Shown in pieces: positions 11,897 to 36,056 of a stretch of 64,000 bases of DNA. The DNA is from an uncultured Chloroflexia bacterium (GTDB lineage: Bacteria > Chloroflexota > UBA5177), in NCBI GenBank assembly GCA_963737125.1, contig CAVTRL010000003.1, positions 132,204 through 196,203 of the forward strand, read 5' to 3'. Both the position numbers and the translations under genes were made by a program. The notes below the pieces were generated by a model, which saw only the letters and a program-made list of their open reading frames with translations, had not been told where the DNA came from and did no database searches. Position 1 is the stretch's first letter; each line of letters opens with the position of its first letter.

Positions 11897-12604
11897 TCAG
11901 TCGTGTGGGTGTATATCGTCGGGCGGAACGAGTCCCCGTTGTAGCGCAAGTCGCGTTGCCTCAACTCTCGACCCCGCCTGCATTTTATGTAAAATATGAC
12001 TGACATGGTGATCCACGGTTCGCTGACTGAGGTAGAGCCGAGCGGCAATATCGGCGTTACTGAGACCGCGTGCGACGAGCTGGAGTACCTGGACCTCGCG
12101 GGCGGTCAGTCCGAATGGTATATCGGCCGATTCCTCCCTCTCCAGATCACCGAAGTCCTCGCCGGAGTCCACGGGCCGCACAACGGCAGTGAGCCCCTCC
12201 ATGCGGACAACTTCCACCTCGCTACCGATCGGTATGACGATACCTGCTGGTTCGGGACGCGCGGTCCAGAACTGGCCGACTCCTACCCGAATCTGGCCGT
12301 TGAGTTGCGAGACCGATTCTTCGACGAGAGCGCGTTGTCCGACCGGGCCGATCGCCGGTGCATTGTTGGATGCCGACGCACGCGGCAGGAGATGGAGGAC
12401 GGCCGGACGGACCGCCAGGAGCAAGACGAGTGAGACCAGGCAGAAAAAGACGATCTGGACCGGTACCGGAGCGGCGAGCGAGACGGCGGCGGTGAGCAGT
12501 GCCGCAATGGAGAGAGAGGCAAGAAACAATCCTAACGATAGAAGCTCACCGACCAACGTTACGATGGCGACGATGAGCCACACCAACCAGAGGGTTTGCG
12601 GCAT
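11897..12604 (-). CDS. Membrane-anchored NfeD-like OB-fold domain fused to a C-terminal LuxR-type HTH
   Basis: Two N-terminal TM helices. NfeD β-barrel motif GQIRVGVGQFWTARPEPAG...EVEVVRMEGLTAVVRP. C-terminal LTAREVQVLQLVARGLSNADIAARLYLSQRTVDHHVSHILHKM (LuxR/GerE HTH). Confidence 0.75.
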   Translation of the reverse strand: MPQTLWLVWLIVAIVTLVGELLSLGLFLASLSIAALLTAAVSLAAPVPVQIVFFCLVSLVLLLAVRPAVLHLLPRASASNNAPAIGPVGQRALVEESVSQLNGQIRVGVGQFWTARPEPAGIVIPIGSEVEVVRMEGLTAVVRPVDSGEDFGDLEREESADIPFGLTAREVQVLQLVARGLSNADIAARLYLSQRTVDHHVSHILHKMQAGSRVEATRLALQRGLVPPDDIHPHD

Positions 12605-12874: not shown

Positions 12875-13369
12875 ATGGGGACGTGGTGGGTATGGCTGGT
12901 AATAGCTCTACTCGCAGGAGTAGGGGAACTGATGACTACCGGTTTGTTCTTCGCGATCGTCGCGGCGGCAGCGGTGTTGATAGCGCTGGTGGCACTGGTG
13001 CTGCCGATAGCGGCCGTGCAGGTCGCGCTGTTCGCGGGCATATCGTTGGGCGGAGTCGTGTTTCTTCGGCCCGCTCTGATGGGTGTACTGAATCTGCAGA
13101 CGCTCGCGCACGGGTCGGGTGACACCGTGCAATCTCGGGTCGCCGGCAAGCGGGCCACGGTGACGCGCACGGTCGACCTGGCAGGAGGACAAATTCGAGT
13201 CGGTGACGGCGAGTTCTGGTCGGCGCGAGCGTACGATCCGGACGATCTGATTCCAGTCGGCGCATCGGCCGACATCGTCGTGGTTGATGGGCTAACCGCT
13301 CTGGTGACACCCGTGGTACCGTTGACACTTGAACACGATGCACAACTGACAACAGAGAAAGGGGCATGA
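12875..13369 (+). CDS. NfeD-like (short form) membrane protein
   Basis: N-terminal TM helices plus GGQIRVGDGEFWSARAYDPDDLIPVGASADIVVVDGLTALVTPV OB-fold. Sits immediately upstream of the SPFH gene. Confidence 0.8.
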   Translation: MGTWWVWLVIALLAGVGELMTTGLFFAIVAAAAVLIALVALVLPIAAVQVALFAGISLGGVVFLRPALMGVLNLQTLAHGSGDTVQSRVAGKRATVTRTVDLAGGQIRVGDGEFWSARAYDPDDLIPVGASADIVVVDGLTALVTPVVPLTLEHDAQLTTEKGA

Positions 13370-13372
13370 GAA

Positions 13373-14347
13373 ATGCTTGGTCTCGAAATCGTATTGGCGG
13401 TCCTCGTATTGTTTGTGCTGATCACCGGATTTAAATCAATCCGGGTGGTCCCGCAGGCACGCGTCATCGTCGTACAGCGGCTTGGCCGCTACCTGAAAAC
13501 CTCCGGAAGCGGACCGGTATTCGTGATCCCGTTCGTGGACAAAATCCTTCCGACGGTTGATTTGCGCGAGCAGGTCGTGCCGTTCCCACCACAGGCAGTG
13601 ATTACGTCAGACAACGTCGGAATCCAGGTAGCCACAGTCGTGTACTACCAGATCATCGACGCAAAGAACTCAACCTATCAGGTGGTGGATCTGGTTGCGG
13701 CCATGGAGCAGCTCACCATCACGACGCTTCGTAACGTCATCGGTGGGCTTACCCTCGACCGCGCACTTACCAGCCGGGAGGACATCAACTCCAACATGCG
13801 GGCCTCGCTGGACGAGGTAACGGAAGGTTGGGGCGTGCGCGTTAATCGTGTCGAGCTGAAAGACATCATCCCGCCACACGATGTCCAGCAGGCGATGGAA
13901 AAGCAGATGCAGGCGGAGCGCGAAAAGCGAGCGTCGATCCTACGGGCCGAAGGCATGAAGCAGTCGTCGATTCTGCAGGCGGAAGGGGAGAAGCAGTCCG
14001 CAATCCTCACGGCCGAAGGTCAACGACAGGCGAGCATCCTGCAAGCTGAAGGTGAAGCGCAAGCTCTGGTCACCATCCAGACCGCGCAGGCGCAGGCGGT
14101 ACACGTGGTGTTCGACGCGCTCAACGAGGCGCACGCCACGCCGGAAATCCTGAAGTACCTGTACATTCAGAGCCTACCGAAGATCGCCGAAGGCTCCGCC
14201 AACAAGCTGTTCATCGTGCCCTCCGAACTGCAAAGCATCGCAAGCATGGGCGCGACATTCTCGGCGGCGTCCGAAAACAACGGCAATGCCAACGGCGCGC
14301 CGATCGTGCCGCAGATCACCTCGGGCCGAACCGGCTCGACCAGCTAA
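13373..14347 (+). CDS. SPFH/band-7 (stomatin/prohibitin-like) protein
   Basis: N-terminal TM helix, SPFH core (VVPQARVIVVQRLGRY..., TSDNVGIQV), and a coiled-coil region with AEG/ILQAEG repeats. Confidence 0.9.
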   Translation: MLGLEIVLAVLVLFVLITGFKSIRVVPQARVIVVQRLGRYLKTSGSGPVFVIPFVDKILPTVDLREQVVPFPPQAVITSDNVGIQVATVVYYQIIDAKNSTYQVVDLVAAMEQLTITTLRNVIGGLTLDRALTSREDINSNMRASLDEVTEGWGVRVNRVELKDIIPPHDVQQAMEKQMQAEREKRASILRAEGMKQSSILQAEGEKQSAILTAEGQRQASILQAEGEAQALVTIQTAQAQAVHVVFDALNEAHATPEILKYLYIQSLPKIAEGSANKLFIVPSELQSIASMGATFSAASENNGNANGAPIVPQITSGRTGSTS

Positions 14348-30837: not shown

Positions 30838-31446
30838 ATGAAGAAAGAGTACATCATCGAGCGACTGGGCAAGCAGTTCGTTTTGTACGAAGGCCTGCTG
30901 GACGAAGCGCATCAGCAGGGGCTATGCCGTATCTCCACCACGCTCATTCAGGTGCCCCATCCTGATAACGGCAACAGCGCCATCGTCGCCGCCGAGGTGG
31001 AAACCTCCAAGGGCTCATTCAGCGGTATTGGCGACGCGTGTCCGAGCAACGTCGGACGTCCGATTGTGCCGCACATCGTTCGCATGGCGGAGACGAGGGC
31101 GAAGGCACGGGCTTTGCGGGATGCGGTCAACATCGGCGTTACCGCGGTGGAAGAACTGGGTGACCTGGACGAGCAGCCGGTTGAGGCATCGCGCCGAGGA
31201 GCCTTCGACGTACCGGCCGTAGCAGAATCCACCGGCCAATATCGCACCGATGTGCCGAAGGCGTCGCCGTACAAGCCGGCCAGCGCGAATCAGCTGGCCA
31301 CGGTGGCGAAGTTATCGCGGTTGCTGGGACGTCCGGAGGAATTGACCGAAAACATGACGTCGGCCGATGCCTCGGATCGCATCACCGAGCTTTCGCGTGA
31401 ATACAACGAGCGAAAGGGCAGTATCGCGGTACAGCGTTCCGCCTAG
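30838..31446 (+). CDS. Hypothetical protein, possibly SOS-regulated; possible Erf/Rad52-like annealing-protein fold (tentative)
   Basis: 202 aa. Conserved-looking N-terminal core (IVAAEVETSKGSFSGIGDACPSNV...IVRMAETRAKARALRDAVNIG) plus an acidic, disordered C-terminal half. Confidence 0.55.
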   Translation: MKKEYIIERLGKQFVLYEGLLDEAHQQGLCRISTTLIQVPHPDNGNSAIVAAEVETSKGSFSGIGDACPSNVGRPIVPHIVRMAETRAKARALRDAVNIGVTAVEELGDLDEQPVEASRRGAFDVPAVAESTGQYRTDVPKASPYKPASANQLATVAKLSRLLGRPEELTENMTSADASDRITELSREYNERKGSIAVQRSA

Positions 31447-31462
31447 CTCGAAAAGTACCGGG

Positions 31463-31499
31463 CCGGTTCCACCGCAATGCGGTGGAACCGGCTTTTTTT
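31463..31499 (+). terminator. Rho-independent terminator
   Basis: CCGGTTCCACCGC-AAT-GCGGTGGAACCGG followed by CTTTTTTTA. Confidence 0.85.
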
Positions 31500-31605: not shown

Positions 31606-32961
31606 ATGACCGATTCACAGACGAAAAGCCGCACTGCCGGCAAAGCCACGGAGAGCTTCCAACAGGCGCTCATCGATGTGGCGCATCTCATGCGCCGGGC
31701 CGGCTTTGGGGCACCGGCCGCCGACATCCTGGCAGCCGCGCGGCGGGGGCGCGAGGAGACAGCTCAGATGCTGGTGGCGTACGACCAGGTACCCGAGACG
31801 CCTCCTCCACCCCCGGCTTCCATCAACGATCCGAAGTCACGTCAATCGGACGATCTTGGCGCCTGGTGGCTCGATCGCATGATCACCACGGCGCGGCCAC
31901 TTCAGGAAAAAATGACGCTCTTCTGGCACGGTCATTTCGCCACCGCGATATCGAAGGTCGCGCGGCCCTATCTGATGTACGTGCAGAACGAGACGCTTCG
32001 CACCAACGCGCTCGGCCGGTTCGACGACATATTGACGGCGGTGTACAAAGACCCGGCGATGCTGATCTGGCTCGACGGCGAGCGCAACATCAAGGGCGCG
32101 CCGAACGAAAACTGGGGTCGCGAGGTGATGGAGCTCTTTACGCTGGGGCGTGGGAACTACACGGAGGACGATGTACACGCGAACTCCCGGGCGTTTACCG
32201 GCTGGCGTGTCGGCTCCGACGGGCAGGCGGTCTTCGTGCCACGTCTCTTCGACTCCGGAACCAAAACACTGTTGGGACAAACCGGCAACTGGACGAGCGA
32301 CGACGCCGTGCGCATTCTCTCGTCACACCCCGCGACGGGACCCTTCCTGGCAACGAAGCTCTGGAAATTCTTCGCGACCGACACGCCGCCGCAGAAAGCG
32401 ATCGATACTCTTGCCCAGGCCTATGAGGAGAGCGATCACAGCATCCGCGCGGTCATGACGAAGCTGCTCACGATGCCCGAGTTCTACAGCGAGAAAACGC
32501 GAACCGGACATTTCAAGAGCCCGGTTGAATTTGTCGTGGCGGCGATTCGACAGTTGGGAATTCAACAGGTCGACACATCAACCTTTCCACGCTTTCTCAC
32601 CTTGCTGGGTCAGGAGCTATTCAACCCGCCAAACGTTGGAGGGTGGCCCGGGGGCGCGAACTGGATCAGCGCGGGGAGCATGCTCTCTCGATTCAACTTT
32701 GCGTCACACCTGACCGGCGACGCGCCCGGCTCAGTCGGGATCGTGGACGGCGGTGCACTGCTGGCGGCGAGCGATGTGGATACGACCCAGGAGCTGATGG
32801 AAAGCGTGGCCGACGTTCTGGGTCTGCAGCTCAGCGCGCAGACCAGTGCAGCCTTCATGAATTATCTCGGGAGGGGCTCCATCGATTCGATCGACCCGGA
32901 TGTCAAGGTACGAGGACTGGTACACCTTGCTCTGGCCTCTCCGGAATACCAGCTGTCATGA
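31606..32961 (+). CDS. DUF1800 family protein
   Basis: FWHGHFATAISKV, LIWLDGERN and NENWGREVMELFTLG motifs are characteristic of DUF1800. Confidence 0.75.
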   Translation: MTDSQTKSRTAGKATESFQQALIDVAHLMRRAGFGAPAADILAAARRGREETAQMLVAYDQVPETPPPPPASINDPKSRQSDDLGAWWLDRMITTARPLQEKMTLFWHGHFATAISKVARPYLMYVQNETLRTNALGRFDDILTAVYKDPAMLIWLDGERNIKGAPNENWGREVMELFTLGRGNYTEDDVHANSRAFTGWRVGSDGQAVFVPRLFDSGTKTLLGQTGNWTSDDAVRILSSHPATGPFLATKLWKFFATDTPPQKAIDTLAQAYEESDHSIRAVMTKLLTMPEFYSEKTRTGHFKSPVEFVVAAIRQLGIQQVDTSTFPRFLTLLGQELFNPPNVGGWPGGANWISAGSMLSRFNFASHLTGDAPGSVGIVDGGALLAASDVDTTQELMESVADVLGLQLSAQTSAAFMNYLGRGSIDSIDPDVKVRGLVHLALASPEYQLS

Positions 32962-34271: not shown

Positions 34272-34435
34272 AGGTCATGGCAGCGAAACGGGCGTAGTGA
34301 TGCCAGGCACGTCATGTGACCGCGCGATGACGCGGCTGTGGCGAGGAGCCCCAATCCACCGGGAGACGGAACTGACACCAGGACGGGTCTAGGCGTCTTC
34401 CGCACCGACCTCAAGGGCGGGACGGGCGCGGAGCA

Positions 34436-34824
34436 TCAAGCGACCCACGAGTTCTCTCGAGGCTTGAATGGCGACACGCCGGGCGCGCCGCGCGGCAACT
34501 CAGCGCCTGCCAGTCCGGTTTTCCCGCGATGGAGATCGGCGCCCTGTGCACCAGGTGAGTGCGCCAGGTGAGCTTGCGATCCCGACGTAGGACCGGCGCG
34601 CCGCCCCCTGGGAAGAGGATAGACGAACCGGCCGATGGTTGCCGAGGTCCAGCCAACAAGCCAGCCGAGGAAAAAATGAGTGTGCAGCGGGCGTGGCTCT
34701 CCGACTCTCCGGCGAGAACCAGCGCCCACACAACGATCCAGGGGACGAAGCAACCGATGCTGTACGCCGCGTACGAGTTCACGCGGCCTCGTCGATGGAA
34801 CGGGTGATCATTTGACGATTCCAT
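34436..34824 (-). CDS. Small 2-TM membrane protein (probable frameshift at a T6 run)
   Basis: RBS GAGGAG 7 nt before ATG (minus strand). MESSNDHPFHRRGRVNSYAAYSIGCFVPWIVVWALVLAG, then a second helix FFLGWLVGWTSATIGRFVY in an adjacent frame. Confidence 0.3.
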
Positions 34825-34867
34825 AGATTTCTCCTCGCTGGTCAAAATACGTACTTGCCACGCCGGC

Positions 34868-34900
34868 ATTAATGTGATATCTATTAGATATCACATTAAT
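34868..34900. promoter_or_regulatory. 33-bp perfect palindrome ATTAATGTGATATCTA-T-TAGATATCACATTAAT (candidate operator)
   Basis: Perfect inverted repeat, AT-rich in a 65% GC genome. It lies 24 nt upstream of the SPFH gene start, in a divergent promoter region. Confidence 0.6.
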
Positions 34901-34923
34901 ATCTATTAACCCAGGAGGCGATC

Positions 34924-35838
34924 ATGAACCAGCAGGATGAACTTGAAGTCGTGGCGAACGAGCCGGTCGGTCACGGCGGGGTACGGGTGGACATCAGGCA
35001 GCGGCCGGTGCCAATGGTAACCGGCTGGGTTGGAGTAGCACTACTTGTGGTCTGCGCCGCCGCAACCTACCTGGCGATACAGCGAGCGGCCGGTGGCTGG
35101 ACGGCGATCCCGATCGTCGCCTTCGTCGTAGTGCTGAGCACGATCGTTATCGTGCCTCCGGGGCAGAGCCAGGTCGTGCAGTTCTTCGGTTCCTACGTCG
35201 GTACCGTTCGACGCCCGGGATTCTGGTCGGTTCTGCCGCTAACCATACGCCGCGGAGTGAGCATACGGGTGCGGAACTTCGAGACAAACCGGCTGAAGGT
35301 CAACGATGCCGATGGCAATCCAGTCGAGATCGCCGCGATCGTCGTCTGGCAGGTCGCCGACTCAGCAAAGGCAGTGTTCGCAGTTGACGACTACAACGAC
35401 TTCATCACGGTACAGGCCGAGTCGGCGCTGCGGCACGTAGCCAACGGTCACCCATATGAAGATACCCAGGGATCGGGAACGTCGCTGCGCGGCTCAACCG
35501 ATGTAGTCGCGGCGCAACTGGCCGCGGAGGTGGCCCAGAGGGTGGTGGTCGCGGGCATCGAGGTCGTGGAAGTACGGATCAGCCATCTGGCCTATGCCAC
35601 TGAGATCGCCCAGGCCATGCTCCGTCGCCAGCAGGCAAACGCTGTGGTCGCCGCCCGATCGCGGATCGTCGAGGGCGCGGTCGGAATGGTGGAGATGGCA
35701 CTGAAACGGCTTTCGGAGCACGGCGTGGTGGAGCTCGACGAGGAACGTACGGCCGCGATGGTGAGCAACCTGATGGTGGTGCTCTGTGGCGATCAGTCGG
35801 CAACACCGGTCGTTAATACCGGCACGCTCTATTCGTGA
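34924..35838 (+). CDS. SPFH/band-7 domain membrane protein
   Basis: Two N-terminal TM helices and an SPFH core ([25 protein letters not shown]..., [10 protein letters not shown]). RBS GGAGG. Confidence 0.8.
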
Positions 35839-36056
35839 CCCGGGAACGGAAGCCGGTCCTCCTCCGTATGGACCCAGCGGTGCACGACGCACTGGCCCGC
35901 TGGGCCACGGACGAGTTCCGCAGTCTCAATGCCCAGATCGAGCTGCTCTTACGACGCTCGCTGGAGGATGCCGGCCGAATGCCGAAGGAGGTCAAACCAC
36001 TGCCTCGCCGGGGGCGGCCTAGGACGGACGAGCGTGAGCCGGTAGAAGCGGAGTGA
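35835..36056 (+). CDS. Arc/MetJ-type ribbon-helix-helix DNA-binding protein
   Basis: GTG start overlaps the SPFH stop (GTGA). PVLLRMDPAVHDALARWATDEFRSLNAQIELLLRRSLEDAG fits a β-α-α RHH. Basic C-terminal tail. Confidence 0.65.
   Translation: MTRERKPVLLRMDPAVHDALARWATDEFRSLNAQIELLLRRSLEDAGRMPKEVKPLPRRGRPRTDEREPVEAE

Follow-up and report, generated by a model that had tools for sequence, protein, structure and literature searches.

A palindromic candidate operator accompanies a conserved SPFH–ribbon-helix-helix gene pair in at least six bacterial phyla

What role does a perfect palindrome play directly in front of a gene for a membrane protein of the SPFH family? The question is raised by a stretch of 64,000 nucleotides from an uncultured Chloroflexia bacterium (Chloroflexota; contig CAVTRL010000003.1, positions 132,204 to 196,203), called the window below. 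In this window, an AT-rich inverted repeat precedes an SPFH/Band 7 gene that is followed, with a short overlap, by a gene for a 73-aa protein resembling the ribbon-helix-helix (RHH) regulators of the Arc type. Bacterial SPFH proteins, relatives of stomatin, flotillin and HflK/C, form large membrane cages, and their physiological roles are mostly unclear. To our knowledge, NfeD is their sole widely recognised partner. The reading preferred here, to which we give a probability of roughly 0.7, is that the palindrome serves as the operator of a self-contained, negatively autoregulated SPFH–RHH operon, which the RHH product would bind and repress. The sequence anatomy of this cassette, its conservation, the co-occurrence of its parts and the specificity of its motif were observed directly in the loci compared. 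The three main parts in the window are the following.

34868-34900, no strand assigned: perfect 16+1+16 palindrome, ATTAATGTGATATCTA-T-TAGATATCACATTAAT, read from the sequence
34924-35838, plus strand: gene for an SPFH/Band 7 membrane protein of 304 aa (Pfam PF01145, E 2.5e-25)
35835-36056, plus strand: gene for the 73-aa protein, Arc-like RHH at the profile level, identified from its translation; its GTG start overlaps the TGA stop of the SPFH gene as GTGA

The evidence that carries this reading is mainly comparative. A scan with the SPFH protein, with one genome per species, yielded more than 565 relatives; the best 80 loci, with SPFH proteins 57–82% identical, were taken without reference to the DNA motif and belong to Chloroflexota, Actinomycetota (Acidimicrobiia, Thermoleophilia, Actinomycetes) and Dormibacterota. 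In 77 of these 80 loci, the gene directly after SPFH encodes a homologue of the 73-aa protein; the two genes share a 4-nt overlap (usually NTGA) in 53 loci and stand 3 nt apart in 13 (66/80 together). When the motif was defined as GTGATATC-N(4-5)-GATATCAC with at least 12 of 16 positions matching, it was found upstream of SPFH in 78 of 83 loci, with the exact N5 spacing in 74. The aligned consensus of these 74 loci is AAA(A/T)GTGATATC(A/T)nTT(A/T)GATATCAC(T/A)TTT, with 1.2–2.0 bits at most core positions. The only two loci that truly lack the RHH gene, L047 and the Sinomonas locus L083, also lack the motif. The neighbouring genes of the pair vary among loci, and no other DNA-binding gene is conserved near it among the neighbourhoods compared. 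The palindrome and the gene pair are co-inherited despite the differing flanks. Their co-occurrence in related genomes had been put forward for checking in a preliminary description of this locus, made from its sequence; they occur together in 77–78 of about 80 genomes found through SPFH. This check and the one for dispersed copies, given below, were the two computational ones proposed there, and both favour that description's reading of an autoregulated module.

Variations of this arrangement are informative as well. Five Solirubrobacterales loci (L016, L033, L036, L037 and L058) carry a small gene with two transmembrane segments between the motif and SPFH (positions 2424-2753 in L016 and 2635-2925 in L036), which makes a three-gene operon; the motif therefore heads the operon in these loci too. 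A separate observation concerns L007 (JAJPIP010000022.1), labelled ‘Proteobacteria bacterium’. Its SPFH and RHH identities equal those of the Chloroflexota locus L002/L003, and about 115 nt around the operator are identical letter for letter; these matches suggest a mis-binned contig or one organism under two labels.

The SPFH–RHH cassette with the same operator is present in at least six bacterial phyla. In a collection of plasmids and chromids, the same pair was found in Qipengyuania citrea (Alphaproteobacteria), Parabacteroides distasonis (Bacteroidota), two Deinococcus strains and Nonomuraea, with the small protein annotated as ‘Arc family DNA-binding protein’, ‘HicB family antitoxin’ or ‘hypothetical protein’. 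These loci have two [G/A]ATATC hexamers 11 bp apart upstream of SPFH; the site of Parabacteroides reads TAATATCAAAT-TAATATCAAAT. The pair also occurs in five further Deinococcus chromosomes, where a GTGATATCAC-like 10-bp palindrome precedes SPFH in all five and the second site is degenerate. An operator that stays nearly unchanged across phyla is unusual, and it suggests that the two genes travel as a unit with their promoter and operator. The carriers include culturable Deinococcus and Terrabacter and the gut commensal Parabacteroides distasonis, which offers a direct experimental handle. In four of the five Deinococcus chromosomes (L200-L203, about 300-1400), a gene for an HtrA-like protease (Trypsin_2 + PDZ) lies directly upstream of the pair; this neighbour hints at a possible role in the quality control of membrane or envelope proteins.

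In the window, the palindrome has the letters and coordinates first given for it, and an inverted-repeat comparison finds it to be the longest perfect inverted repeat of the 64 kb. The full palindrome had no match in 100 shuffled windows. Some figures of the preliminary description had to be revised. The site is AT-rich, as was said, with 18% GC instead of about 25% in a window of 61.7% instead of 65% GC, and 23 nt, not 24, separate it from the SPFH start codon. The finer elements of the region are listed below.

34855-34860, plus strand: -35-like hexamer TTGCCA, a predicted promoter element taken from the sequence and a conserved cTTGc block
34874-34894, no strand assigned: conserved core of the candidate operator, GTGATATC-TATTA-GATATCAC, delimited by base frequencies and information content in 74 protein-anchored loci
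34875-34883, plus strand: predicted extended -10 element TGaTATCTA inside the left palindrome arm, placed by its spacing, 17 nt after the -35
34898-34903, no strand assigned: third hexamer, AATATC, read from the sequence 11 bp after the second GATATC, possibly an extra sub-site
34913-34918, plus strand: Shine–Dalgarno sequence AGGAGG of the SPFH gene, read from the sequence 5 nt before the ATG

The core contains two GATATC sub-sites, at 34876-34881 and 34887-34892, whose centres (34878.5 and 34889.5) are 11 bp apart. With the third hexamer, the window has three phased sub-sites; that position scores at least 5/6 in only 2 of about 70 loci, the window included. Motif positions T2, G3, T5, A6, T7 and C8 are 95–100% conserved in the 74 loci. 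The -10 hexamer TATCTA would occupy 34878-34883, preceded by TG at 34875-34876, and the promoter assignment as a whole is a prediction from sequence. It agrees with the geometry of the related loci. The cTTGc block lies at a fixed distance from the motif in the 74 aligned loci, with an exact TTG at offset -19 or -18 in 31, and the distance from the motif to the start codon ranges from 13 to 55 nt (median 25, one outlier of 182). A fixed distance to the -35-like TTG and a variable one to the start codon fit a transcriptional, not a translational, role.

Two explanations of the palindrome dispense with a repressor altogether. An AT-rich palindromic site in a GC-rich genome could be a dispersed repeat, of the repetitive extragenic palindromic (REP) or miniature inverted-repeat transposable element (MITE) type, lying here by chance, as the preliminary description had itself considered. 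Within the window, the related loci and the metagenome contigs scanned, this can practically be dismissed, since occurrences of the motif are tied to SPFH operons. The palindrome is single-copy in the window, and neither it nor a half-site recurs elsewhere in the 64 kb even with up to 3 mismatches per half-site. The related loci, about 526 kb in all, contain 78 motif matches: 73 no more than 320 bp upstream of SPFH, four that are again this operator but are separated from SPFH by an additional small gene, and one in L045 that is weak (13/16) and lies some 2.6 kb downstream of where SPFH starts. In metagenome contigs, 110 stretches matched AAAGTGATATC-N5-GATATCACTTT, and 80 of them were obtained as loci; an SPFH gene follows in 66 and has its start cut by the contig end in 3 more, so that all 69 high-GC matches (69/69) stand in front of SPFH. 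The other 11 of the 80 lie on contigs of 25–58% GC from unrelated organisms, and a few low-GC contigs with phased GATATCAC repeats and no SPFH are a point in favour of a repeat. Alternatively, the palindrome could act in RNA, as a 16-bp hairpin in the 5′ leader (an attenuator, a processing site or a mask over the ribosome-binding site). The perfect repeat of the window could form a stable hairpin, and it ends 12 nt before the Shine–Dalgarno sequence. In the 74 sites, however, the differences between core arms comprise 77 uncompensated, 18 of the G-T type and 3 compensated ones, and only 15 sites are perfectly symmetric; the differences are not compensatory and each arm is conserved as sequence, which argues for a protein-binding site in DNA. 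The spacing described above also speaks against a hairpin. Only the right arm would be transcribed, because the predicted -10 lies inside the left one; moreover, Rfam gave no match and no terminator-like T-run follows downstream. A function in RNA is therefore very improbable.

Separately from this question, runs of GATATCAC(TTT) phased at 11 bp were seen on contigs of 45–58% GC with no SPFH nearby (L117 538-600, L132 283-350, L159 360-415, and L135 at 642 and 1323). Such runs could serve unrelated RHH-type regulators as operators, or they could be repeat elements.

The candidate repressor is the 73-aa protein, whose start codon overlaps the SPFH stop just as originally described. Its family has more than 2368 homologues, which form 1316 clusters at 50% identity (E <= 1e-3); no Pfam or NCBIfam model covers it. 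In a Pfam scan of 98 diverse members, the five most-matched families were all RHH families: RHH_5 (72 members), HicB (50), FitA-like (46), ParD_like (40) and Arc (18); BrnA was also matched. Of ten Deinococcus orthologues tested, nine score above the RHH_5 gathering cut-off of 26 bits (26.3–29.5). An hhalign comparison of the family profile with P22 Arc gave a probability of 82% and E 1e-5 over 44 columns, pairing Arc 9-52 with residues 7-50 of the small protein, that is, the whole domain. In this alignment P/Q7, L9 and the invariant R11 fall on the DNA-contacting strand positions Q9, N11 and R13 of Arc. R29, S30 and N32 are invariant in the family alignments and would form an R-S-x-N helix-cap motif. 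At the profile level, the small protein can thus be placed in the RHH (Arc/MetJ) superfamily, and on the same basis it is the only product of the cassette with a DNA-binding domain. Searches of PDB sequences with the family profiles returned only marginal Arc matches (E 0.18–0.54). The entry 9pio, ‘Arc family’, is Arc in the role of a ClpXP substrate. Apparent tandem-RHH proteins in the representative set were discarded as chimeras or assembly errors.

RHH proteins are obligate intertwined dimers whose domain folds only as such, and the dimers bind DNA through a two-stranded β-sheet inserted in the major groove. Arc binds its 21-bp operator as cooperating dimers, and the operators of Arc, Mnt and CopG consist of repeated sub-sites. 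The site described here is compatible with a similar mode of binding. GATATC is two-fold symmetric, and two copies 11 bp apart would suit a dimer of dimers. In the proposed mechanism, a sigma-70-type promoter would drive the SPFH gene and the translationally coupled 73-aa gene. Two RHH dimers would bind cooperatively to the two GATATC-centred sub-sites, (G)TGATATC(A/T); with centres 11 bp apart, they would lie on the same helix face, as in the complex of the Arc tetramer with its operator. Once bound, the dimers would lie over the -10 box and the putative start of transcription (about 34890) and so shut out RNA polymerase. Since the 4-nt overlap should yield the repressor in fixed proportion to the SPFH protein, its concentration would report the output of the operon, and the level of the cage-forming protein would be held constant. 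Binding by the RHH protein, its stoichiometry and the repression are, like the role of the tail described next, predictions from sequence.

The small protein ends in a basic tail with a further candidate DNA contact.

36003-36023, plus strand: AT-hook-like motif PRRGRPR, residues P57-R63 of the C-terminal tail, recognised by its conservation in orthologues

The pattern P-[RK]-R-G-R-P is kept in at least 80% of 80 orthologues, and R59, G60 and R61 are invariant among close relatives (alignment A1). The R-G-R-P core with flanking basic residues corresponds to the sequence definition of an AT-hook, and at E <= 0.1 the very short Pfam AT_hook model matches 4 of 98 members. Two clades, those of Deinococcus and Parabacteroides, lack the motif. 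On the DNA side, the AAA and TTT that flank the core carry 1.1–1.7 bits in the 74 aligned loci, and the PRRGRP motif probably contacts the minor groove at these A/T tracts. If this is confirmed, the joining of an AT-hook tail to an RHH domain would be a combination for DNA recognition that is new in bacteria.

Several observations weigh against autorepression by the RHH protein, or against the part assigned to its tail. The window's own protein reaches its Pfam matches only below threshold (HicB E 0.012, Arc 0.052, RHH_5 0.097). The glycine of the G-x-S/T/N turn is absent, with Phe or Leu in its place. Models of the monomer by AlphaFold2, built with alignments of 40 and 94 sequences (pLDDT 78–79), show a continuous helix over residues 14–46 and no strand, and a Foldseek search of the PDB with the monomer model returned no RHH structure. 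The RHH assignment of the preliminary description accordingly stands at the profile level (Pfam and hhalign) and is not reproduced by the monomer models. A consensus scan for promoters and terminators called nothing at the palindrome; the promoter would have been missed because its -10 ends in A and lacks the final T. Nor do AT-hook and A/T flanks clearly go together: in six Deinococcus loci, whose proteins lack RGRP, the left flank is still fairly A-rich, and several Actinomycetes have RGRP with one A/T flank missing.

The function of such a cassette could also be read in other ways. One alternative is a toxin–antitoxin-like or abortive-infection module, in which SPFH would be a membrane-damaging effector and the RHH protein both an antitoxin, acting through its C-terminal tail, and an autorepressor; this agrees with autoregulation on the binding of the operator and differs on function. 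Some orthologues are annotated as ‘HicB family antitoxin’ or ‘type II toxin-antitoxin system antitoxin’ and members match Pfam HicB, FitA-like, ParD_like and BrnA, but these antitoxin names derive from the shared RHH fold and not from any test. The effector-first order with translational coupling recalls hicAB and higBA, and the patchy cross-phylum spread with variable flanks suggests horizontal transfer of the cassette. On the other hand, the partner belongs to no known toxin or defence family, its only Pfam match being SPFH, and PADLOC recognised neither the SPFH nor the RHH protein. Conservation of SPFH across phyla, at the identities given above, is far above that typical of toxins. The pair is single-copy and chromosomal, with stable synteny to the HtrA-like protease gene in Deinococcus; phages gave only 2 weak matches, and the 6 matches in the plasmid database are all on large non-mobilizable replicons. 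A module of this kind is considered unlikely. It seems equally unlikely that another regulator, encoded elsewhere, binds the palindrome while the RHH protein does something different, for example replacing NfeD as the partner of SPFH. Monomer models without the RHH fold leave room for this, as does the fact that binding of the RHH protein to the site is a prediction, and flanking A/T tracts and an overlap with a promoter would suit many regulators. Such a regulator, however, would have to travel along with a site and a gene pair that are co-inherited across at least six phyla while their neighbours change. Both loci without the RHH gene have also lost the site, no other DNA-binding gene is conserved nearby, and the profile evidence consistently points to an Arc-like RHH protein.

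Autorepression by the RHH protein therefore remains the reading we prefer, and an elaboration of it deserves mention. Rather than being a constitutive autorepressor only, the RHH protein might use its conserved tail to dock on the cytoplasmic side of the SPFH cage, or to come free from it; this is rather doubtful. For comparison, PspA and PspF form such a partner switch. If capture and release did occur, transcription of the operon would read the assembly or load state of the scaffold, and the cassette would amount to a portable sensor of membrane state.

The SPFH protein itself is clearly assigned, with 90 bits against PF01145 at a gathering cut-off of 23.6. Its N-terminus, as translated, has hydrophobic segments at about residues 31–52 and 60–77, after an Arg-rich stretch and before the domain; from this order, the SPFH domain is probably cytoplasmic. 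The closest solved structure is that of E. coli QmcA (8z5g, E 3e-4). According to the survey of prokaryotic SPFH proteins by Hinderhofer et al. (2009), conserved operons exist only for SPFH1, 2 and 5, with NfeD, and subfamilies 6–12 have no documented members (PMC2636767). A 2026 survey of SPFH proteins in Pseudomonas likewise names NfeD partners only (PMC13086221). The pair at 34924-36056 is of another kind: a Pfam scan of the 73-aa partner found no NfeD match. As the preliminary description had noted, this is the second SPFH system of the window; the first is a canonical pair of NfeD (12875-13369) and SPFH (13373-14347). Divergent from that canonical operon (12875-14347) is a gene on the minus strand (11897-12604) for a 235-aa protein in which an NfeD domain for membrane and partner binding (PF01957, E 4.9e-11) is fused to a DNA-binding domain of the LuxR/GerE type (PF00196, E 1.8e-19). 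The window's other SPFH system thus seems to be wired to a dedicated transcription factor too, and this neighbourhood hints that SPFH assemblies may be recurrently wired in this way.

Two further features of the window lie outside the cassette. The ‘divergent small membrane-protein gene’ of the preliminary description, an open reading frame at 34411-34824 on the minus strand upstream of the palindrome, is mechanically called and its status as a gene is unsupported: it has no entry in the protein collection and no counterpart in the related loci, and its codon-position GC is atypical over most of its length. The region (34411-34869, minus strand) encodes one hydrophobic segment, and a T6 run (about 34672-34677) is followed by a further hydrophobic stretch in a different frame, for which reason it could be a frameshifted or spurious gene. 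A GC-rich perfect 15+1+15 inverted repeat, GCCGGTTCCACCGCA-n-TGCGGTGGAACCGGC, lies at 31462-31492, 16 nt past the end of the open reading frame 30838-31446 and before that at 31606-32961; it may be a terminator hairpin or another operator.

The principle of an RHH autorepressor on a palindromic operator is classical. Three features appear not to have been described so far: the pairing with an SPFH subfamily, the conservation of the operator from phylum to phylum and the AT-hook tail. The searchable literature contained nothing that joins SPFH with ribbon-helix-helix, nothing that joins the two annotation names and no mention of GTGATATC as an operator; nor did it contain a description of an RHH domain combined with an AT-hook in bacteria. 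Beside the pairing with NfeD, SPFH proteins would have a second widespread conserved partnership, that of one subfamily with an Arc-like regulator whose operator can be recognised, and a widespread, uncharacterised subfamily becomes open to simple genetics.

Four groups of known systems are close enough for comparison. Like the antitoxins of type II systems with RHH domains (HicB C-terminal, FitA, ParD, CopG-like), to which the small protein has weak to moderate profile matches, the gene described here is small, translationally coupled to its partner and presumed to repress through a palindromic operator. It differs in that the partner is in no known toxin family and very highly conserved, and in that, apart from a short basic, proline-rich tail, nothing in the RHH protein can be recognised as a toxin-binding domain. 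With Arc and Mnt of phage P22 it shares a predicted β-α-α region of about 50 residues, alignable by profile to Arc over the whole domain, and an operator of about 21 bp whose two sub-sites are separated by one helical turn and which overlaps a predicted promoter, an arrangement from which autoregulation is expected. Here, in contrast, the gene is chromosomal, not a phage gene, and paired with an SPFH membrane protein; the protein has a C-terminal tail of about 25 residues, with the AT-hook-like PRRGRP in most clades, Phe or Leu replaces the turn glycine, and DNA binding is predicted. For the tail, we take eukaryotic HMGA, bacterial CarD and the RGR motif of Lsr2 and H-NS to be the appropriate comparison set. 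They have in common with it an R-G-R-P core with basic and proline neighbours and A/T tracts in the target DNA; the motif of the small protein occurs once, as an addition to a sequence-specific RHH domain, and is missing in the Deinococcus and Bacteroidota clades. Finally, the SPFH–NfeD operons (stomatin/QmcA–YbbJ, YqfA–YqeZ) likewise couple an SPFH membrane protein closely to one small conserved partner gene. In those operons the partner is the membrane protein NfeD, encoded upstream, whereas here it is a DNA-binding-type RHH protein encoded downstream.

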